Shown in pieces: positions 14,421 through 28,137 of a DNA stretch of 64,000 bases; position 1 is the first letter of the stretch; every line of letters begins with the position of its first letter. The stretch lies in assembly GCF_044324875.1 (NCBI RefSeq), contig NZ_CP172185.1; one strand, written 5' to 3'. Below the pieces are notes generated by a model. It was not told the origin of the DNA. It did no database searches and saw only the letters and a list, made by a program, of their open reading frames with translations. The DNA comes from Escherichia coli (GTDB lineage: Bacteria > Pseudomonadota > Gammaproteobacteria > Enterobacterales > Enterobacteriaceae). The position numbers and the translations under genes were made by a program.

Positions 14421-14585
14421 TGGAGGAATTATGAAACACTGTCGGGAATCGTCTGAATGACGGGCACATTTGCGAGCACGCATCCAGTAATAACACATGA
14501 AACTATTTTATCTACGCGTTAGCGATAGACTGCTTGCATGGCGAAAGGAGGTAAGCCGACGATTTCAGCGGGACGCTGAAACGGG

Positions 14586-14727
14586 AAAGCCCCTCCCGAG
14601 GAAGGGGCCTTAAATAAGGAAAGGGTCATGATGAAGTGGATCATCATCGTGGTGCTCTTAGTGATTAGCTACCCAGCATACTAAGACTACCAGGGCGGGG
14701 GAAACCCCGCTCTACCCTCACTCCTGA
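14586..14727 (-). ncRNA. Sib-type antisense sRNA (antitoxin) covering ibs copy 1; ends approximate
   Basis: Sib RNAs are known to be encoded fully antisense to ibs ORFs. A GC hairpin at 14589..14610 on the minus strand is followed by a short T run and could be the Sib terminator. The 5' end is not determinable from sequence. Confidence 0.45.
14628..14684 (+). CDS. Ibs-family type I toxin (18 aa, MMKWIIIVVLLVISYPAY)
   Basis: ATGATG start preceded by aaggaaaggg; 18 hydrophobic codons then TAA; sits inside repeat unit 1. Matches the Ibs toxin family pattern. Confidence 0.75.
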   Translation: MMKWIIIVVLLVISYPAY

Positions 14728-14913
14728 AAGTATGCCTTCACGATAAGATTGTCAATCTGCAGGCTTTGCAGTCTGCGATCCTGCCAGCAAATATTCTTTG
14801 CGAGACGTTACGCAATAATCACACTGGAAACTATTTTATCCGCAAGTCAGCGATAGACTGCATACAGGGCGAAAGGAGGTAAGTCGACGATTTCAGCGGG
14901 ACGCTGAAACGGG

Positions 14914-15055
14914 AAAGCCCCTCCCGAGGAAGGGGCCTTAAATAAGGAAAGGGTCATGATGAAGCTACTCATCATCGTGGTGCTCTTAGTCATAAGCTTC
15001 CCCGCTTACTAAGACTACCAGGGCGGGGGAAACCCCGCTCTACCCTCACTCCTGA
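14914..15055 (-). ncRNA. Sib-type antisense sRNA covering ibs copy 2; ends approximate
   Basis: Placed by position equivalence with copy 1 within repeat unit 2. Confidence 0.45.
14956..15012 (+). CDS. Ibs-family type I toxin (18 aa, MMKLLIIVVLLVISFPAY)
   Basis: Same architecture as copy 1, in repeat unit 2. Confidence 0.75.
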   Translation: MMKLLIIVVLLVISFPAY

Positions 15056-15242
15056 AATTATGCCTTCACGATAAGATTGTCAATCCGCAGGCTTTGCAGT
15101 CTGCGATCCTGCCAGCAAATATTCTTTGCGAGTCGTTACGCAATAATCACAGAGGAAACTATTTTGTTCACGCGTTAGCGATAGACTGCATTCAGGGCGA
15201 AAGGAGGTAAGCCGACGATTTCAGCGGGACGCTGAAACGGGA

Positions 15243-15385
15243 AACCCTCTCCCGGAGAAGAGGGCTTTTAATAAGGAAAGGGTTATGATGAAGCACGTCA
15301 TCATACTGGTGATACTCTTAGTGATTAGCTTCCAGGCTTACTAAGAACACCAGGGGGAGGGGGAAACCTCTCCCTAACCCTCACT
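15243..15385 (-). ncRNA. Sib-type antisense sRNA covering ibs copy 3; ends approximate
   Basis: Placed by position equivalence. Hairpin ccctctcccggagaagaggg replaces gcccctcccgaggaaggggc of unit 1 with compensatory changes. Confidence 0.45.
15285..15344 (+). CDS. Ibs-family type I toxin (19 aa, MMKHVIILVILLVISFQAY)
   Basis: Same architecture in repeat unit 3. Flanking hairpins differ in sequence from units 1-2 but keep complementarity. Confidence 0.75.
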   Translation: MMKHVIILVILLVISFQAY

Positions 15386-15564
15386 CCTGAAATTATGTCA
15401 CTCCGCCCTTAGTGTCAATCGACGGCTCTCCGTTCTTGCGAGGCGAATAGCAAAATTTTCTGCGCCGCCGGGCCTAATTCTGAAAGTTGCTTTGCCTGCT
15501 CATATTTCATTGTTGCAGTCGGTATGATACCGGACCTCAATAATTCTCTAAGAAAGGATTTCTT

Positions 15565-16224
15565 ATGAGCGAACAAATCACGTTTGCCACCAGCGATTTT
15601 GCCAGTAACCCGGAACCACGTTGCCCCTGCATTTTGCTGCTGGATGTTTCTGGTTCTATGAACGGTAGACCCATTAATGAACTTAACGCCGGATTGGTTA
15701 CCTTTCGCGATGAGCTGCTTGCCGATTCGCTGGCCTTAAAAAGAGTGGAACTCGGTATTGTGACGTTCGGCCCGGTGCATGTGGAACAACCCTTTACCAG
15801 CGCCGCTAATTTTTTCCCGCCCATCCTGTTTGCCCAGGGCGATACACCAATGGGGGCCGCCATTACCAAAGCCCTGGATATGGTTGAGGAGCGCAAACGT
15901 GAGTATCGCGCCAATGGTATTTCCTATTATCGCCCGTGGATTTTCCTGATCACCGATGGCGCTCCAACCGATGAGTGGCAGGCTGCCGCCAACAAAGTGT
16001 TTCAGGGGGAAGAAGATAAGAAGTTTGCCTTCTTTTCCATCGGTGTTCAGGGGGCGGATATGAAGACTTTGGCACAAATCAGCGTTCGTCAGCCTTTGCC
16101 ACTGCAGGGATTACAATTCCGTGAACTGTTTAGCTGGTTATCCAGTTCGCTGCGTTCGGTTTCCCGCTCCACGCCGGGAACGGAAGTTGTGCTGGAAGCG
16201 CCAAAAGGCTGGACGTCAGTGTGA
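15565..16224 (+). CDS. yegL: von Willebrand factor A (vWA) domain protein YegL
   Basis: 219-aa ORF with MIDAS-like motif near the N-terminus ([12 protein letters not shown]) and the conserved TDGAPTD motif. AGGA SD upstream. Confidence 0.9.
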
Positions 16225-16982
16225 GCTGGCGTCTGGTCTATGCATCAACCGTTGGAACGTCGCACATCAGCGCGGACTTGCCTTGCCAGGATGCCTGCCA
16301 GATGCAGGTTGCCTGGTTAAATGACCAGCAGCCATTATTGTCGGTATTTGTCGCTGATGGCGCAGGCAGCGTCTCGCAGGGTGGCGAAGGTGCGATGCTC
16401 GCCGTCAATGAAGCGATGGCTTATATGTCGCAAAAAGTGCAGGGCGGGGAATTGGGGCTTAATGATGTCCTCGCAACGGACATTGTGCTGACCATTCGTC
16501 AGCGACTTTTTGCCGAGGCGGAAGCCAAAGAATTAGCGGTTCGCGATTTTGCCTGCACGTTTTTGGGATTGATTTCATCAGCTAATGGCACCTTGATTAT
16601 GCAGATTGGCGATGGCGGCGTGGTGGTAGATTTGGGTCACGGTCTGCAATTGCCTCTCACGCCGATGGTGGGTGAATATGCCAACATGACGCACTTCATT
16701 ACCGATGACGATGCTGTTTCCAGACTGGAAACTTACACCAGCACTGGGCGTGCGCATAAAGTTGCAGCATTTACGGATGGTATCCAGCGACTGGCGTTAA
16801 ATATGCTGGATAATTCTCCTCATGTGCCTTTCTTTACCCCGTTTTTCAATGGACTGGCGTCAGCAACGCAGGAACAACTCGATTTATTACCTGAATTGTT
16901 AAAGCAGTTTTTGTCCAGCCCGGCGGTAAACGAGCGTACGGATGATGATAAAACGTTGGCACTGGCGCTGTGGTTACCATGA
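16221..16982 (+). CDS. pphC: PP2C-family Ser/Thr protein phosphatase PphC (YegK)
   Basis: 253-aa ORF. GTG start overlaps the yegL stop (GTGA). PP2C-like metal-binding motifs ([17 protein letters not shown]). Confidence 0.85.
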
Positions 16983-18919
16983 AACCCACTTTATATACTG
17001 CTACTGGTGAGTGCGTTACGCCAGGCCGTGAACTGGGAAAAGGTGGCGAAGGCGCGGTTTATGATATCGAGGAGTTTGTCGATAGCGTCGCCAAGATTTA
17101 TCACACGCCGCCACCCGCCTTAAAACAGGACAAACTTGCCTTTATGGCTGCGACAGCTGACGCGCAATTGTTGAATTATGTCGCCTGGCCGCAGGCAACG
17201 CTTCACGGTGGACGAGGCGGAAAGGTTATCGGTTTTATGATGCCAAAAGTTTCTGGTAAAGAACCGATTCATATGATCTATAGCCCGGCACATCGTCGCC
17301 AACGTTACCCTCATTGTGCGTGGGATTTTCTACTCTATGTTGCGCGCAATATTGCTTCATCTTTTGCTACGGTTCACGAGCACGGGCATGTCGTGGGTGA
17401 CGTAAACCAGAACAGCTTTATGGTAGGCCGTGACAGCAAAGTGGTGTTGATTGATAGCGACTCCTTTCAGATTAACGCCAATGGCACGCTGCATTTATGC
17501 GAAGTCGGCGTGTCGCATTTTACGCCGCCAGAGCTGCAAACCTTGCCATCATTTGTCGGCTTTGAACGCACCGCGAATCACGATAATTTTGGCCTTGCGT
17601 TGCTGATTTTTCACGTCTTGTTTGGTGGGCGGCATCCTTATTCCGGTGTAACGCTTGTCTCTGATGCGGGTAATGCACTGGAGACGGATATTGCCCATTT
17701 CCGTTATGCCTACGCGTCAGATAATCAGCGACGTGGTTTAAAACCGCCGCCACGATCTATTCCGCTGTCGATGTTACCGGGCGATGTTGAAACCATGTTT
17801 CAGCAGGCATTCACGGAAAGTGGCGTGGCAACCGGGCGTCCGACGGCAAAAGCGTGGGTTGCGGCACTTGATTTACTACGCCAACAGTTAAAGAAATGTA
17901 CCGTTTCGGCAATGCATGTTTACCCCGGTCATTTGACTGACTGCCCGTGGTGTGCGCTGGATAATCAAGGCGTTATCTATTTTATTGATCTCGGCGAAGA
18001 GGTCATTACCACCAGCGGTGATTTTGTGCTGGCGAAAGTCTGGGCGATGGTGATGGCGTCAGTAGCACCGCCAGCATTGCAACTGCCATTACCCGATCAT
18101 TTCCAACTGACTGGCAGGCCGCTTCCTTTAGGCCTGTTACGGCGCGAATACATCATTCTGATTGAGATCGCACTGTCAGCGTTATCGCTGTTGCTTTGCG
18201 GCCTTCAGGCAGAACCGCGTTATATTATTTTGGTTCCTGTGCTGGCGGCTATCTGGATTATTGGCAGCCTGACAAGCAAAGCGTACAAAGCAGAAATCCA
18301 GCAACGCCGTGAGGCGTTTAATCGCGCGAAAATGGACTATGACCATTTAGTCAGCCAGATCCAACGGTTGGGCGGGCTGGAAGGTTTTATCGCCAAACGG
18401 ACGATGCTCGAAAAAATGAAGGACGAAATTCTTGGGTTACCGGAAGAAGAAAAGCGCGATCTGGCAGCACTTCAGGACACCGCAAGGGAACGGCAGAAGC
18501 AGAAGTTTCTGGAGGGATTTTTTATTGATGTTGCCTCTATTCCCGGCGTTGGCCCTGCGCGTAAAGCGGCGTTACGGTCCTTTGGTATTGAAACGGCGGC
18601 AGACGTTACCCGACGGAGCGTTAAGCAAGTTAGAGGTTTTGGTGATCATCTGACCCAGGCGGTTATCGACTGGAAAGCGAGTTGCGAACGCCGTTTTGTT
18701 TTCAGGCCGAACGAAGCGGTAACGCCTGCAGACAGACAAGCGGTAATGGCAAAAATGGCCGCCAAACGACATCGGCTGGAATCGACGTTGACTGTCGGTG
18801 CGACAGAGTTGCAGCGATTCCGCCTTCATGCTCCAGCACGGACCATGCCGTTGATGGAACCGTTACGTCAGGCGGCAGAAAAACTGGCTCAGGCGCAGGC
18901 AGATTTAAGCCGCTGCTGA
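16979..18919 (+). CDS. yegI: eukaryotic-like Ser/Thr protein kinase YegI
   Basis: ATG at 16979 overlaps the pphC stop (ATGA) and gives [11 protein letters not shown]..., matching recalled YegI. Gly-rich loop GKGGEGAVYD and kinase-like core (HVVGDVNQNSFMV), then TM segments and a C-terminal helical region. The ORF-track start at 16970 is a GTG three codons upstream. Confidence 0.85.
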   Translation: MKPTLYTATGECVTPGRELGKGGEGAVYDIEEFVDSVAKIYHTPPPALKQDKLAFMAATADAQLLNYVAWPQATLHGGRGGKVIGFMMPKVSGKEPIHMIYSPAHRRQRYPHCAWDFLLYVARNIASSFATVHEHGHVVGDVNQNSFMVGRDSKVVLIDSDSFQINANGTLHLCEVGVSHFTPPELQTLPSFVGFERTANHDNFGLALLIFHVLFGGRHPYSGVTLVSDAGNALETDIAHFRYAYASDNQRRGLKPPPRSIPLSMLPGDVETMFQQAFTESGVATGRPTAKAWVAALDLLRQQLKKCTVSAMHVYPGHLTDCPWCALDNQGVIYFIDLGEEVITTSGDFVLAKVWAMVMASVAPPALQLPLPDHFQLTGRPLPLGLLRREYIILIEIALSALSLLLCGLQAEPRYIILVPVLAAIWIIGSLTSKAYKAEIQQRREAFNRAKMDYDHLVSQIQRLGGLEGFIAKRTMLEKMKDEILGLPEEEKRDLAALQDTARERQKQKFLEGFFIDVASIPGVGPARKAALRSFGIETAADVTRRSVKQVRGFGDHLTQAVIDWKASCERRFVFRPNEAVTPADRQAVMAKMAAKRHRLESTLTVGATELQRFRLHAPARTMPLMEPLRQAAEKLAQAQADLSRC

Positions 18920-18931
18920 GCCATTTTTCAA

Positions 18932-20284
18932 TTAACGAAACACCACTTCCGCCCAGCGTGCCAGCCCGGCGGTGACGGAGCCAAAGTCATCGCCGCCTGC
19001 AATCGGAATGCCCGGCAACTGTTCTGCCAGCGCTTTTTTAATCAGCGGTGAACGGGCGCTACCGCCGGTCAGATAGATAACATCCGGTTTTTCCTGGGCG
19101 TTATCCAGCGCCAGTTGCACCTGTTCCAGAATCCGCGCCAGTGGCTGGTTGAGGGCGCTTTCCAGCCCTTGCTGGCTAATCAGCGTAGCCAGTTCATCGC
19201 TGATAAACGGCAGTGAGGCGCGGGTTTCCGCTACGCTTGAAAGCGCAATTTTGCTCTCTTCTGCGCTACGTACCAGGCGATAGCTTAAACGCTGACGCCA
19301 GACTTTCTGTAACAGGGCCACTTTTTCCGGTTCGCGGGCATCGCGTACCAGATCGTTAAGCAGACGACCGTTGGCACTACTGTAGAAATCACTTTGCGCA
19401 GGTACGTCGTTGATGGCAACCGCATTCCACCACGGCAGAATCGGCAGGGCGATGCCTTTTTCGGTTTCGCCACCCATGCCCAGTAACGGCATCAGGTTTT
19501 TAAACGCCAGTGCGATATCCAGATCGTTACCGCCAATACGGCAACCACTGTGACCCAGCAGGCTGGCTTCACGATCGAGACGCGAACGCCACTGCGGCCC
19601 CATCAGCAGCAATGAACAGTCAGTCGTACCACCGCCGATATCCACCACCAGCACCCGTTTTTCTTCCTGCAAGGTGGCTTCGTAATCCAGCCCAGCCGCG
19701 ACCGGCTCGTACTGGAATACCACATCCTTAAACCCGGCACGCTTCGCCGCGCGTTCCAGAATCCCCTGCGCCTGGGTGTTTGCTTCATCGCCGCCCAGCC
19801 CCTGGAAGTTGATAGGGCGACCAATCACCGCCTGAGTAATCGCTTCTGGCAGCTGTGCCTGCGCCTGCTGGCGAATGTGCAACATCATTGCGCAGACCAG
19901 ATCCTCAAACAGCGCTACCTGCTGCGGTTTTAAGCCGCTGGCACCGAGGAACGATTTTGGTGATTTCACAAACCACACTTCTTCTGGATCATCAATGTAC
20001 TGTGCCAGTGAGGAAAGACCGAACTGCACGCTTTTCGCCGTAACATCGATATATTCTTCGCGGTTATAACGAATCGCCCGACGCAGCAGCGCCTGCGTTT
20101 CATCGTCGTCTGCCGGAACATCATGATGGCGGTACAGCCATTCGCTTACCGCTTCACGCGTTGGCGCGCAAAGCATTGAAGGCAGCAGCGTGCTGTCGTT
20201 TTCCATTTTCAGTAATTGCGGCTTACCGTCGCGCATGACCGCCACTGAACAGTTTGCTGTACCGTAATCAAAACCAATAAACAC
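18932..20284 (-). CDS. yegD: Hsp70/actin-fold ATPase family protein YegD
   Basis: Probable GTG start at 20284 giving (M)FIGFDYGTANCSVAV (450 aa), matching recalled YegD. Hsp70 phosphate-binding motifs (VDIGGGTTDCS). The ORF-track extension to 20347 is probably not translated. Confidence 0.85.
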   Translation of the reverse strand: MFIGFDYGTANCSVAVMRDGKPQLLKMENDSTLLPSMLCAPTREAVSEWLYRHHDVPADDDETQALLRRAIRYNREEYIDVTAKSVQFGLSSLAQYIDDPEEVWFVKSPKSFLGASGLKPQQVALFEDLVCAMMLHIRQQAQAQLPEAITQAVIGRPINFQGLGGDEANTQAQGILERAAKRAGFKDVVFQYEPVAAGLDYEATLQEEKRVLVVDIGGGTTDCSLLLMGPQWRSRLDREASLLGHSGCRIGGNDLDIALAFKNLMPLLGMGGETEKGIALPILPWWNAVAINDVPAQSDFYSSANGRLLNDLVRDAREPEKVALLQKVWRQRLSYRLVRSAEESKIALSSVAETRASLPFISDELATLISQQGLESALNQPLARILEQVQLALDNAQEKPDVIYLTGGSARSPLIKKALAEQLPGIPIAGGDDFGSVTAGLARWAEVVFR

Positions 20285-20417
20285 GAAATAATCCCCATGC
20301 CGGTGAAGAAGGGGCGTGACTTTAGCGAAATGTTGCCGTCGCGACAACCGGAATATGAAAGCAAAGCGTAACGTCTGAATAACGTTTATGCTGAAAGCGG
20401 ATTAACAAGGAGATGCG

Positions 20418-21275
20418 ATGTATACCCTGAACTGGCAGCCGCCGTATGACTGGTCGTGGATGTTGGGATTTCTCGCCGCCCGTGCGGTGAACGGTGTGGA
20501 AACGGTCGCTGACGATTATTATGCCCGTAGTCTGGCGGTGGGCGAATATCGCGGCGTGGTGACTGCTATTCCGGATATAGCCCGCCATACTCTGCACATA
20601 AATTTAAGTGCAGGTTTAGAACCAGTTGCCGCAGAGTGTCTGGCGAAAATGAGCCGCCTGTTTGATCTGCAATGTAACCCGCAGATTGTTAACGGTGCGT
20701 TGGGCAAGTTAGGCGCGGCGCGGCCCGGATTGCGTTTACCCGGCAGTGTTGATGCTTTTGAGCAGGGCGTGCGGGCGATTTTAGGCCAGCTGGTGAGCGT
20801 GGCGATGGCGGCAAAATTGACCGCCAGAGTGGCACAGCTTTATGGCGAACGGCTGGATGATTTTCCGGATTATGTCTGCTTCCCCACGCCTCAGCGGCTG
20901 GCAGCAGCCGACCCGCAGGCATTAAAAGCGTTAGGTATGCCGTTGAAACGGGCAGAGGCGCTGATTAATCTGGCAAATGCGGCGCTGGAGGGCACCTTAC
21001 CAATGACAATTCCGGGCGACGTAGAGCAAGCGATGAAAACGCTGCAAACTTTTCCGGGTATCGGGCGCTGGACGGCGAATTATTTCGCCTTACGTGGCTG
21101 GCAGGCGAAAGATGTTTTCCTGCCGGATGATTATCTGATTAAACAGCGATTTCCGGGAATGACACCGGCACAAATCCGCCGTTATGCCGAACGCTGGAAG
21201 CCCTGGCGTTCTTATGCGCTGTTGCATATCTGGTATACGGAAGGCTGGCAACCAGACGGAACGGACGAATTGTAG
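20418..21275 (+). CDS. alkA: 3-methyladenine DNA glycosylase II AlkA
   Basis: 285-aa ORF beginning MYTLNWQPPYDWSWMLGFLAARAV, with helix-hairpin-helix glycosylase fold. Matches recalled AlkA. Confidence 0.95.
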   Translation: MYTLNWQPPYDWSWMLGFLAARAVNGVETVADDYYARSLAVGEYRGVVTAIPDIARHTLHINLSAGLEPVAAECLAKMSRLFDLQCNPQIVNGALGKLGAARPGLRLPGSVDAFEQGVRAILGQLVSVAMAAKLTARVAQLYGERLDDFPDYVCFPTPQRLAAADPQALKALGMPLKRAEALINLANAALEGTLPMTIPGDVEQAMKTLQTFPGIGRWTANYFALRGWQAKDVFLPDDYLIKQRFPGMTPAQIRRYAERWKPWRSYALLHIWYTEGWQPDGTDEL

Positions 21276-21297
21276 GCCTGATACGCCGCATCAGGCG
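21273..21297. repeat. REP-like palindrome, probable bidirectional terminator between convergent alkA and dgcE
   Basis: gcctgatacgccgcatcaggc is an imperfect palindrome of the REP family, sitting between two convergent stop codons. Confidence 0.6.
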
Positions 21298-21312
21298 ATG
21301 GGGAAGCACGCC

Positions 21313-26283: not shown

Positions 26284-28137
26284 ATGAGACGATTTCTGAC
26301 GACGCTGATGATACTCCTGGTCGTGCTGGTGGCCGGGTTATCTGCGTTAGTGTTGCTGGTGAATCCGAATGATTTCCGCGACTATATGGTCAAGCAAGTT
26401 GCTGCACGTAGCGGTTATCAATTGCAGCTCGACGGGCCACTGCGTTGGCACGTCTGGCCGCAACTTAGTATCCTCTCCGGGCGAATGTCTCTCACTGCCC
26501 AGGGCGCGAGCCAGCCACTGGTTCGCGCAGACAACATGCGTCTGGACGTGGCGCTTTTACCACTGCTGAGTCATCAACTGAGCGTTAAGCAGGTGATGCT
26601 AAAAGGGGCAGTGATTCAACTGACGCCGCAGACGGAAGCGGTGCGCAGTGAAGACGCTCCGGTTGCACCGCGCGACAATACCTTGCCGGATCTGTCAGAC
26701 GATCGCGGATGGTCGTTTGATATATCCAGTCTTAAGGTGGCGGACAGCGTGCTGGTGTTCCAGCATGAAGATGACGAGCAGGTGACAATCCGCAATATTC
26801 GCCTGCAAATGGAACAAGATCCCCAACATCGTGGTTCATTTGAGTTCTCCGGGCGGGTTAATCGCGATCAGCGCGATCTCACGATATCCCTTAACGGTAC
26901 GGTAGATGCTTCTGATTATCCGCATGATTTAACGGCGGCTATTGAACAAGTTAACTGGCAGTTGCAGGGTGCAGATTTACCAAAACAAGGTATTCAGGGG
27001 CAGGGGAGTTTCCAGGCCCAGTGGCAGGAGTCACATAAACGCCTTTCATTTAACCAAATTAGTTTGACCGCCAATGACAGTACGCTGAGCGGGCAAGCAC
27101 AGGTCACACTGACAGAGAAACCGGAATGGCAGCTGAGACTGCAATTTCCGCAACTGAATCTTGACAACCTCATCCCGCTTAATGAAACAGCGAACGGTGA
27201 AAACGGTGCCGCGCAGCAGGGGCAGAGCCAATCAACGTTGCCGCGCCCGGTCATTTCTTCGCGTATTGATGAACCGGCCTATCAGGGACTGCAAGGCTTT
27301 ACGGCTGATATTTTGTTGCAGGCCAGTAACGTGCGCTGGCGCGGAATGAATTTTACAGATGTTGCCACGCAAATGACCAACAAGTCGGGTTTGCTGGAAA
27401 TTACTCAACTGCAGGGCAAACTTAACGGTGGACAGGTTTCACTGCCGGGCACGCTGGACGCGACATCAATAAATCCGCGGATAAACTTCCAGCCACGGCT
27501 GGAAAACGTTGAGATTGGTACCATTCTGAAGGCGTTTAACTATCCGATTTCGTTGACCGGAAAGATGTCACTGGCTGGTGATTTCTCCGGTGCTGACATA
27601 GATGCCGACGCATTCCGCCATAACTGGCAAGGACAGGCACATGTCGAAATGACCGACACGCGCATGGAAGGGATGAACTTCCAGCAGATGATTCAGCAAG
27701 CGGTAGAACGTAATGGTGGTGATGTGAAGGCCGCTGAAAACTTCGATAACGTAACGCGTCTTGACCGCTTTACCACCGATTTGACGTTGAAGGATGGCGT
27801 CGTGACGTTAAACGACATGCAAGGTCAATCGCCCATGCTGGCGCTTTCCGGGGCTGGTACGTTGAATCTGGCGGAGCAAACCTGTGACACCCAGTTTGAT
27901 ATTCGGGTCGTGGGGGGCTGGAACGGGGAAAGCAAACTGATTGATTTCCTCAAAGAAACGCCAGTACCGCTGCGGGTTTATGGCAACTGGCAGCAACTCA
28001 ATTACAGTCTGCAAGTGGATCAGTTACTGCGCAAACATCTACAGGACGAAGCGAAACGTCGCCTGAATGACTGGGCCGAGCGGAATAAAGATTCCCGCAA
28101 TGGCAAAGATGTGAAGAAGTTGCTGGAGAAGATGTAG
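26284..28137 (+). CDS. asmA: outer-membrane assembly/lipid transport protein AsmA
   Basis: 617-aa ORF with N-terminal membrane anchor MRRFLTTLMILLVVLVAGLSALVLL and a long periplasmic AsmA-like domain. Confidence 0.93.
   Translation: MRRFLTTLMILLVVLVAGLSALVLLVNPNDFRDYMVKQVAARSGYQLQLDGPLRWHVWPQLSILSGRMSLTAQGASQPLVRADNMRLDVALLPLLSHQLSVKQVMLKGAVIQLTPQTEAVRSEDAPVAPRDNTLPDLSDDRGWSFDISSLKVADSVLVFQHEDDEQVTIRNIRLQMEQDPQHRGSFEFSGRVNRDQRDLTISLNGTVDASDYPHDLTAAIEQVNWQLQGADLPKQGIQGQGSFQAQWQESHKRLSFNQISLTANDSTLSGQAQVTLTEKPEWQLRLQFPQLNLDNLIPLNETANGENGAAQQGQSQSTLPRPVISSRIDEPAYQGLQGFTADILLQASNVRWRGMNFTDVATQMTNKSGLLEITQLQGKLNGGQVSLPGTLDATSINPRINFQPRLENVEIGTILKAFNYPISLTGKMSLAGDFSGADIDADAFRHNWQGQAHVEMTDTRMEGMNFQQMIQQAVERNGGDVKAAENFDNVTRLDRFTTDLTLKDGVVTLNDMQGQSPMLALSGAGTLNLAEQTCDTQFDIRVVGGWNGESKLIDFLKETPVPLRVYGNWQQLNYSLQVDQLLRKHLQDEAKRRLNDWAERNKDSRNGKDVKKLLEKM

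Follow-up and report, generated by a model that had tools for sequence, protein, structure and literature searches.

In the window examined here, which is the whole 64-kb stretch of Escherichia coli DNA analysed, yegD and the kinase gene yegI face each other tail to tail. The TGA stop codon of yegI lies at positions 18917-18919 on the plus strand and the TAA stop codon of yegD at positions 18934-18932 on the minus strand, and re-reading of the coordinates confirmed the distance of 12 bp between these opposite-strand stops that had been given in the initial annotation. The features of the locus are collected in Table 1. The genes, the GTG start of yegD and the 12-bp junction are all part of the existing RefSeq annotation and represent known, ordinary biology. 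The PGAP start of yegI is the ATG at 16979, which overlaps the pphC stop within an ATGA, as opposed to the GTG at 16970 that opens the longest ORF.

Table 1. Features of the yegD-yegI locus, in plus-strand order. Positions refer to the window.
Feature	Positions	Strand	Basis or comment
Inserted cassette, ~3,486 bp	15446-18931	+	yegL, yegK/pphC, yegI, candidate terminator hairpin and gap
yegL, vWA	15565-16224	+	Pfam VWA 8.7e-10
yegK/pphC, PP2C	16221-16982	+	Pfam PP2C_2 1.1e-51
yegI, Ser/Thr kinase with C-terminal helix-hairpin-helix region	16979-18919	+	Start per PGAP; weak Pfam HhH match
Plus-strand A5, U5 for a yegD-sense transcript	18879-18883	-	Within yegI codons GAA-AAA
Hairpin, candidate bidirectional intrinsic terminator	18885-18923	.	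8-bp outer stem (TGGCTCAG/CTGAGCCA) and 5-bp inner stem
12-bp gap	18920-18931	.	Cassette-derived DNA separating the yegI and yegD stops
T5 tract	18924-18928	+	U-tract for a yegI-sense transcript; lineage-variable, decayed in the E. albertii scar
yegD CDS, 450 codons and TAA	18932-20284	-	ORF; identical length by PGAP; Pfam HSP70; NCBIfam NF008673
yegD GTG start codon	20282-20284	-	Codon conservation; family N-termini align at the GTG
GGGGA, Shine-Dalgarno-like motif	20292-20296	-	7 nt upstream of the yegD GTG
TAAAGT, candidate -10 box of a yegD promoter	20319-20324	-	Invariant in 7 Enterobacteriaceae
TTGTCG, candidate -35 box of a yegD promoter	20342-20347	-	First three bases are the upstream in-frame TTG
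alkA	20418-21275	+	Divergent from yegD; syntenic neighbour conserved in Enterobacteriaceae

The yegD-yegI arrangement is nearly universal across E. coli. At least 80% of a 1.8-kb junction query was present in 5,388 of 5,426 complete E. coli genomes, and an identical yegD of 1,353 nt with an identical gap was annotated in three E. coli genomes (RefSeq/PGAP). The gap measured 12 bp throughout E. coli, with adjacency in ~99% of genomes, as well as in E. marmotae and the cryptic clades. Its size is statistically unremarkable: the four convergent gene pairs in the 64-kb region are separated by 12, 37, 451 and 512 bp, and in Salmonella and Citrobacter the genes of the neighbouring pair dgcE/alkA overlap by 33 bp.

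The yegD product matched the equivalog model NF008673 over its full length (residues 1-450 to profile positions 1-450 of 450; 808 bits versus a cutoff of 331), and this is its likeness to the YegD family (NF008673 / PRK11678, 'molecular chaperone'). The Pfam HSP70 match (E=1.5e-24) covered only the N-terminal part of the profile, with the best stretch at 2-205 of 599. All three superfamily motifs of the Hsp70/actin fold were present, namely phosphate-1 (DxGT), phosphate-2 (DxGGGTxD) and adenosine (GGxxxxP), and the ATPase motifs were intact at residues 6-9 (DYGT), 215-222 (DIGGGTTD), 251-254 (GGND) and 404-412 (LTGGSARSP). Across 19 family members, D6, G8, T9, D215, G217-T220, D222, G251, G252, D254, G407 and G408 were invariant. 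The alignments of YegD to the nucleotide-binding domain of DnaK stopped at about DnaK residue 357, and the DnaK and HscA equivalog models reached at most 85 bits on YegD, relative to cutoffs of 620-1019. Unlike DnaK, HscA and HscC, the 450-residue protein carries no C-terminal substrate-binding domain (beta-sandwich and helical lid) by the profile and DnaK alignments. yegD is a stand-alone gene for a predicted ATPase of the Hsp70 fold that consists of the nucleotide-binding domain only. To our knowledge, neither a solved structure nor an established function exists for any member of the YegD family.

Translation of yegD from the GTG at 20284, which was already proposed in the initial annotation, is well supported by the comparison with orthologues. 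The GTG is in frame and exactly 21 codons below the first in-frame ORF start, a TTG at 20347-20345, in agreement with the earlier estimate of an upstream extension of about 21 residues. GTG was found at the start codon of yegD in all Enterobacteriaceae compared, and the corresponding codon is ATG in Providencia, Aeromonas, Colwellia, Pseudoalteromonas and Amphritea. PGAP calls the same start, the large YegD protein clusters (8,268, 2,367 and 1,805 members) consist of proteins of 450 residues, and longer gene calls are singletons. In the 19 family members, sharing 36-90% identity, the N-terminus lies 2-9 residues before the invariant motif G4-D6-G8-T9. The GGGGA motif is invariant in an alignment of seven Enterobacteriaceae. 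Initiation at the GTG would produce the N-terminal peptide (f)Met-Phe-Ile-Gly-Phe-Asp-Tyr-Gly, i.e. (f)MFIGFDYGTANCSVAVMR.

Initiation at the TTG, by which yegD would encode a protein of 471 residues with a 21-residue N-terminal extension, is highly improbable. In Escherichia the ORF does extend uninterrupted to the TTG, and a few automated public gene calls exceed 450 residues, but a direct reading of the sequence revealed no similar Shine-Dalgarno motif before the TTG, and in other genera the extension is broken by in-frame stops (at -2, -3, -13, -16 and -17 codons relative to the start in distant orthologues) or by frame-shifting indels (not multiples of three, upstream of the start in Citrobacter and Enterobacter). 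A comparable extension was seen in none of the 19 family members compared, the curated model NF008673 has 450 positions, and the TTG itself sits within a conserved promoter-like hexamer. Two alternative downstream starts, M17 and M26, were rejected because either would delete the invariant phosphate-1 motif.

The upstream TTG would instead be a part of the -35 box of a putative yegD promoter. A conserved sigma-70-like promoter, TTGTCG-17 nt-TAAAGT, probably transcribes yegD: in the alignment of the seven Enterobacteriaceae, TTGTCG or TTGTTG is followed by a 17-nt spacer, fixed in length and variable in sequence, and by the invariant TAAAGT. Each hexamer matches the consensus in only 4 of 6 positions, and with 8 of 12 matches the pair was missed by a generic promoter scan with a threshold of 9. 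Sequestration of the Shine-Dalgarno GGGG by CCCC (20313-20310) was dropped on account of weak folding support. Duplex folding of RyhB with the yegD leader identified no specific site, as shuffled targets paired equally well or better, and neither the junction nor the leader matched an Rfam family.

On the other side of the junction, removal of the cassette from the window recreates the empty site of Salmonella and Citrobacter. The GC content of the cassette is 0.515, compared to ~0.555 in the flanking genes. Since its removal restores the empty site, the cassette was inserted directly against the yegD stop codon. The history of the junction can be traced as follows: In an ancestor shared by E. 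coli, E. marmotae and E. albertii, a mobile cassette of ~3.5 kb, encoding vWA, PP2C phosphatase and Ser/Thr kinase proteins and resembling TerY-P, was inserted 1-2 nt downstream of the yegD stop. The 3' end of the cassette carries a strong hairpin with an A5 upstream and a T5 downstream. The 12-bp convergent junction is, by this comparison of occupied and empty sites, a historical by-product of a single insertion, the tight fit of yegD and yegI being due to the arrival of a mobile three-gene cassette immediately behind yegD.

The hairpin is built from the last 11 codons of yegI, its TGA stop and the first four bases of the gap. Owing to its internal loop it was missed by a generic terminator scan, which was replaced by folding, by a custom scan with shuffles and by comparative alignment. 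Folding yielded -27.6 kcal/mol on the plus strand and -26.6 kcal/mol on the minus strand (z ~-3.6), and none of 200 shuffled sequences was as good. A scan of the 64 kb for an A-tract, a hairpin and a T-tract in succession returned two elements only, of which the junction hairpin was the strongest and was located exactly on the junction; shuffled sequences contained a mean of 0.75 matches, and one in 20 held an equally strong one. The hairpin sequence was unique in the window and is coding, and an origin from a REP-like repeat was rejected on these grounds. In Salmonella, no terminator-like element was found until ~175 nt past the yegD stop.

A stable G+C-rich hairpin with a U5 on each strand at convergent gene ends, the hallmark used here for bidirectional terminators, is thus present at the junction. 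As either strand reads the hairpin and then a U-tract, the element is most likely one shared bidirectional intrinsic terminator, a prediction made from the sequence. Transcripts of yegI would end at ~18928, ahead of the yegD stop codon, and transcripts of yegD at ~18877, after ~14 antisense yegI codons, so that the two mRNAs would have roughly 50 nt of complementarity at their 3' ends. The earlier statement that the junction leaves no room for independent terminators is therefore misleading: separate terminators are not needed, because one hairpin over the yegI stop, flanked by A5 and T5, can serve both directions. Ju et al. 2019 reported overlapping bidirectional terminators for convergent gene pairs of E. 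coli. As far as they are summarised in bioRxiv 10.1101/2022.10.23.513370, these likewise consist of a single hairpin between or over convergent gene ends with U-rich sequence on both strands and give complementary mRNA 3' segments. The yegD-yegI hairpin differs in lying mostly inside the yegI coding sequence and not in an intergenic region. If active as predicted, it exemplifies a terminator that consists mostly of a gene's final codons and serves both neighbours. Neither yegD nor yegI had entries in the accessible supplements on 3'-ends (TRS), N-terminomics, in vitro TSS, Cappable-seq TSS and Ribo-RET; both genes are weakly expressed.

The outer stem of the hairpin is invariant in triad-bearing Escherichia and is missing from the cassettes of Klebsiella, Piscinibacter and Chromobacterium, despite the conserved C-terminal peptide of the kinase. 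In the alignment of six distinct Escherichia sequences, 94.9% of the cells were paired. In one E. albertii genome the triad was deleted, yegD was intact and the hairpin was kept in the scar. Here the yegD-sense hairpin folded at -22.7 kcal/mol (z = -2.0) and was followed by GUUUUCUC, the retained U-tract of the yegD side, and the former yegI-sense strand folded at -17.8 kcal/mol (z = -0.3) and had no U-tract.

These patterns bear on the alternative that the hairpin is a mere by-product of yegI coding, and that transcripts are ended either by head-on collision of polymerases, a mechanism suggested for many convergent pairs of E. coli, or by Rho acting on antisense RNA that is not translated; we consider this alternative rather unlikely. 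Its 5' arm and loop encode the peptide LAQAQADL, conserved throughout the cassette family, so a part of the hairpin conservation is coding constraint. The 3' arm, however, combines the stop codon and non-coding bases with a C-terminal tail specific to the lineage, and is gone in the three cassettes named above. No covariation supports the structure, as no pair changed on both sides among the six distinct sequences; compensatory substitutions are lacking because the diversity in Escherichia (92% identical) is too low. The U-tracts of E. marmotae, AUCCUUC and AGUUUCUCC, are degenerate and weak, but an A5 and a T5 flanking both sides in E. coli are unlikely by chance, and in E. albertii, where the yegI coding constraint is lifted, both the hairpin and its U-tract on the yegD side are still there. 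In the model published for E. coli (bioRxiv 10.1101/2022.10.23.513370), many bidirectional terminators are weak alone, act as pause sites for collisions and differ from intrinsic terminators, whereas the hairpin and U-tracts at yegD-yegI look canonically intrinsic. Collisions require substantial convergent traffic, which is lacking at this silent locus. Co-option of the cassette hairpin as yegD's own terminator would explain why hairpin and yegD-side U-tract survived in the E. albertii scar. In E. coli, the overlap of ~50 nt might then turn yegD and the kinase operon into a true excludon, the induction of one side (e.g. of yegD in iron limitation via RyhB) dampening the other; the proposal as a whole, co-option included, is doubtful.

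It had also been suggested that the tight packing reflects transcriptional interference or a functional link between yegD and the triad. With respect to transcription, the yegD and yegI transcripts must overlap, and overlapping transcription of the pair has already been published: ExcludonFinder (PMC12288877) lists yegD-yegI among 165 convergent excludons of MG1655, with overlap in at least 50% of 58 RNA-seq samples. The entry is based on coverage only, and the overlap is trivial, since any use of a terminator across a 12-bp gap gives overlapping transcripts and makes the call nearly automatic. The step from packing to a link found no support. Of the 79 species loci outside E. coli that contain a YegD relative, none had the triad within 10 kb, and none of the five yegLKI cassettes outside Escherichia, those of Klebsiella, Piscinibacter, Chromobacterium and two metagenomic contigs, had an HSP70 gene within 8 kb. 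The co-occurrence analysis that the initial annotation had called for thus found yegD and the triad occurring independently. In Salmonella, Citrobacter, Enterobacter, Superficieibacter and E. albertii, yegD occupies the corresponding syntenic site and the triad is absent from it. Clustering of flanking ORFs across 45 YegD-family loci revealed no conserved neighbour of YegD, only synteny at the genus level.

A coupling of YegD to YegL-YegK-YegI, either through excludon repression or with YegD serving the kinase system as client, regulator or chaperone, is accordingly quite improbable. Besides the excludon listing, it could draw on the adjacency and constant gap maintained in E. coli, E. marmotae and the cryptic clades. 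Against this stand the lack of co-occurrence outside Escherichia in either direction and the E. albertii genome that dropped the triad and retained an intact yegD. Both sides of the junction are barely expressed in the tested conditions, so collisions between polymerases should be rare. In K-12, overexpression of yegJ, located inside the triad, raised yegD mRNA ~8-fold; yegJ is wholly missing from the window, and its effect leaves some room for a regulatory connection at the level of the locus in strains that carry it. The explanation of the locus as a whole, combining the GTG start, the putative promoter, the cassette insertion and the shared terminator, is considered likely.

The importance of the junction itself is slight, as annotation and transcript overlap were already known. 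It is a cautionary example in which tight convergent packing marks the landing point of a cassette after a host stop codon and not a functional partnership, and those who study YegI/PphC and YegD may best treat them as independent. Of the cassette proteins, YegI has kinase activity and is dephosphorylated by PphC according to the literature. The TerY-P triad, composed of a vWA protein, a PP2C phosphatase and a Ser/Thr kinase, was described by Anantharaman et al. 2012 and Gao et al. 2020, as cited in PMC10542128. To the extent that it is portrayed there, yegL-yegK-yegI resembles it in the order of the three domains, in the compact operon with partly overlapping gene ends, in mobility and in the defence-gene surroundings elsewhere; the vWA, PP2C and kinase genes indeed form one such operon in the window. 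The TerY-P kinase in that account has a C-terminal zinc ribbon or OB fold, whereas YegI has a helix-hairpin-helix-like region, for which a weak Pfam HhH match below the cutoff (E=3.8e-4) was the sole hit. Neither a zinc ribbon nor an OB fold was found by Pfam, and PADLOC left YegK and YegL unmatched and gave only weak kinase-core matches for YegI, and did not identify the triad as a known defence system. Three or four of the five cassettes outside Escherichia sit among defence or mobile genes, and this recurrent placement in other bacteria is the better lead on the function of the cassette.

The convergent junction of yegD and yegI is an ordinary one and has been annotated before. The window is E. 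coli chromosomal DNA, and a 1.8-kb junction query matched 5,417 of the 5,426 complete E. coli genomes with 97-99% identity. Its genes run mdtB-mdtA-(ibs/sib copies)-yegL-yegK(pphC)-yegI, followed by yegD on the opposite strand, alkA and dgcE. The stop codons, the 12-bp gap and the GTG position in the initial annotation were exact on recheck, and the length of yegD (1,353 nt) and the gap were identical in the PGAP annotation of strain 7/2, MG1655 and a yegJ-less O158:H23 strain. The additions made here are modest: a proposed shared terminator made from the last yegI codons, an insertion-then-deletion history accounting for the 12-bp gap, and the reading of an upstream TTG as part of a candidate promoter.

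Coordinates of features at the yegD-yegI junction and at the yegD start.
Feature	Position	Strand	Remark
A5 tract	18879-18883		ahead of hairpin
yegI stop TGA	18917-18919	+	read in sequence
yegI-yegD gap, 12 bp	18920-18931		
T5 tract	18924-18928		after hairpin
yegD stop TAA	18934-18932	minus	read in sequence
yegD start GTG	20284	minus	in frame
TTG, first in-frame start of the yegD ORF	20347	minus	exactly 21 codons above GTG

The statement that the gap leaves no room for independent terminators was literally true and still misleading, since one hairpin with U-tracts in both directions spans the junction. This hairpin, at 18885-18923 (TGGCTCAG GC GC A GGC AGATTTAA GCC GC TG CTGAGCCA), folds with -27.6 kcal/mol in the yegI-sense and -26.6 kcal/mol in the yegD-sense RNA (z ~ -3.6; 0/200 shuffles fold as well). 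Its stem is built from the last yegI codons, the TGA stop and the first bases of the gap, and with the A5 tract before it and the T5 tract after it both strands read the hairpin followed by UUUUU. A generic terminator scan missed it because of an internal loop. A custom scan of all 64 kb, which required a hairpin of <= -14 kcal/mol on both strands preceded by an A-tract and followed by a T-tract, yielded two elements only, of which the junction hairpin was the strongest (core -23.1 and -22.4 kcal/mol) and lay exactly on the convergent junction; in 20 dinucleotide shuffles the average was 0.75 hits per 64 kb, with equal strength reached in 1/20. The junction hairpin sequence occurs as a single copy in the window and matched no Rfam family. 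The other element, at 27200-27259 inside the asmA coding region (-16.2 and -16.5 kcal/mol), is within the strength range of the shuffled controls and is probably due to chance.

As judged from sequence and folding, 18885-18923 is most likely a shared bidirectional intrinsic terminator, with terminator function itself rated as somewhat probable. The yegI transcripts would then end just short of the yegD stop codon, those of yegD would run antisense through about 14 yegI codons before ending, and the 3' ends of the two mRNAs would be complementary over ~50 nt. Such an element falls in a known class, the overlapping bidirectional terminators of convergent E. coli genes (Ju et al. 2019, via bioRxiv 10.1101/2022.10.23.513370). 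The yegD-yegI pair is among the published convergent excludons (ExcludonFinder, PMC12288877), a listing which a shared bidirectional terminator would make close to automatic; the transcript overlap is trivial and was published before. The junction locus is silent, and a search of accessible supplements found no RNA 3' ends for it.

The origin of the gap may be traced by comparison with related genomes. Salmonella enterica and Citrobacter freundii have the order dgcE-alkA-yegD-ibs-mdtA without yegLKI, and their homology to E. coli ends exactly at the yegD stop codon. In silico removal of 15446-18931 (3,486 bp, GC 0.515 vs ~0.555 in the flanking genes) restores the empty site of these genomes (TAA, 1-2 nt, CGCCTCGCAAG...TTGACA). 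The triad is thus, very likely, an insertion that abuts the yegD stop codon, with the 12 bp of the gap made up of cassette DNA. The identical arrangement, the 12-bp gap included, occurs in E. marmotae and two cryptic Escherichia lineages. On the yegD strand of Salmonella the first terminator-like element lies ~175 nt downstream, at the Sib sRNA, so until the cassette arrived yegD lacked a terminator of its own. The yegI 3' ends of the Klebsiella, Piscinibacter and Chromobacterium cassettes have no outer stem and conserve the C-terminal peptide LAQAQADL, which makes the full hairpin a feature of the Escherichia version only.

A yegLKI deletion scar was found in the E. albertii type strain NBRC 107761 (locus L007, 11351-11500). 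For ~82 bp beyond the yegD stop the homology is continuous and takes in the hairpin; the next match is to the first 50-70 nt of yegL. The yegL 5' end is thus fused to what remains of yegI, its last ~70 nt with the hairpin. The yegD-sense RNA of the scar folds with -22.7 kcal/mol (z = -2.0), followed by GUUUUCUC, and keeps the yegD-side U-tract, whereas on the former yegI-sense strand the fold is poor at -17.8 kcal/mol (z = -0.3) and the U-tract is gone. This asymmetry, in one genome, would fit a hairpin now serving yegD.

The GTG start proposed for yegD was backed by six independent lines, and translation from it is almost certain. The resulting 450 aa are the size of the big Escherichia, Salmonella and Citrobacter clusters (8,268, 2,367 and 1,805 members), longer calls being singletons, and the curated NCBIfam equivalog NF008673 (450 positions) covers residues 1-450 with 808 bits (cutoff 331). 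When 19 family members with 36-90% identity were aligned, all 19 started 2-9 residues ahead of the invariant G4-D6-G8-T9 phosphate-binding motif, like DnaK, and none carries the ~21-residue N-terminal extension that the TTG would give. The codon at the start position is GTG in all Enterobacteriaceae orthologues and ATG in Providencia, Aeromonas, Colwellia, Pseudoalteromonas and Amphritea. In-frame stops are present 2, 3, 13, 16 and 17 codons ahead of the start in five of the genera compared (Amphritea, Colwellia, Aeromonas/Pseudoalteromonas, Providencia, Superficieibacter), and Citrobacter and Enterobacter have indels that are not multiples of three between the TTG and GTG positions. A GGGGA motif is located 7 nt upstream of the GTG; none like it precedes the TTG.

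The TTG probably makes up the first half of the yegD -35 box. In the alkA-yegD intergenic alignment TTGTCG (20347-20342) and TAAAGT (20324-20319) are essentially invariant, and the 17-nt spacer is constant in length and freely variable in sequence, which is the signature of a sigma-70 promoter. From this pattern we infer that yegD is transcribed from TTGTCG-17 nt-TAAAGT, and a TTG within the -35 box would be absent from the yegD mRNA. Accessible supplements contained no TSS, Ribo-RET or N-terminomic record of yegD. A block at 20350-20368 (+ strand GGAATATGAAAGCAAAGCG), 2 nt from the candidate -35 hexamer (20342-20347), is highly conserved across Enterobacteriaceae. It resembles the AAAGCAAA region bound by Ada in the promoter of the divergent alkA gene; the alkA and yegD promoters would then be back to back, and Ada binding there might influence yegD. 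The yegD leader at 20291-20327 (minus; GCTAAAGTCACGCCCCTTCTTCACCGGCATGGGGAT) is also nearly invariant across Enterobacteriaceae, exceeding the conservation at yegD synonymous sites. RyhB is a published activator of yegD, acting on translation; a crude duplex prediction of its pairing with the leader scored no better than shuffled controls.

A functional link between YegD and the triad, which had been suggested from the tight packing, was not supported, as co-occurrence fails in both directions. With a YegD family profile, 79 loci at species level were recovered, ranging from Escherichia to Alpha- and Betaproteobacteria and Flavobacterium; a tblastn search (1e-5) of the 10 kb around those outside E. 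coli gave no relative of YegI, YegK or YegL, and the Enterobacteriaceae among the 79 retain alkA, dgcE and mdtA synteny. Conversely, YegI homologues with 58-62% identity were present in Klebsiella spallanzanii, Piscinibacter aquaticus, Chromobacterium haemolyticum and two long metagenomic contigs, each in a compact vWA-PP2C-kinase unit as in E. coli, and no HSP70-family gene was located within 8 kb of any of the five. When the flanking ORFs of 45 YegD-family loci were clustered, no conserved partner appeared beyond genus-level synteny; YegD behaves as a stand-alone gene. All ATPase motifs are intact in its Hsp70/actin-fold nucleotide-binding domain, but the protein lacks a substrate-binding domain and is therefore not to be classed with the canonical Hsp70 chaperones; no structure is solved for any family member.

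Three or four of the five non-Escherichia cassettes (L086, L087, L088 and L093; K. spallanzanii, P. aquaticus, C. haemolyticum and a metagenomic contig) have defence or mobile surroundings. The neighbours form four sets: GmrSD, SymE and type I RM; SLFN-like helicase, ScoMcrA/NOV_C, BrxR and JetB; AbiH, KAP NTPase and Tn7-like TniQ/TniB; and HsdR/HsdM with Mrr. These neighbourhoods suggest a conflict or defence role for the cassette, which PADLOC models did not recognise as a system. The domain composition of YegL, YegK and YegI is that of the TerY-P triad, and PphC dephosphorylates YegI in vitro; the C-terminus of the YegI kinase, however, is helix-hairpin-helix-like, whereas that of the TerY-P kinase is a zinc ribbon or OB fold.

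A residual hint of a connection at the level of the locus comes from yegJ, whose overexpression from a plasmid in K-12 raised yegD mRNA ~8-fold. In K-12 and strain 7/2 this gene separates pphC from yegI and is encoded on the other strand. It is absent from the window, where pphC and yegI overlap in an ATGA at 16979-16982 (yegK/yegI junction 16970-16982), and this contiguous layout is common to 3,471 of 5,426 complete E. coli genomes.

Close convergent spacing is normal for the yegD/alkA/dgcE locus: alkA and dgcE, 37 bp apart in the window, share a 33-bp overlap in Salmonella and Citrobacter, and this pair is likewise among the published MG1655 excludons. Their gap (21276-21312) holds a REP-like palindrome (GCCTGATACGCCGCATCAGGC) without U-tracts and with an unremarkable folding z-score. 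The ibs/sib type I toxin-antitoxin unit is repeated in tandem between mdtA and the cassette (~14500-15445), with three copies in the window; K-12 MG1655 has two annotated, Salmonella and Citrobacter have one.
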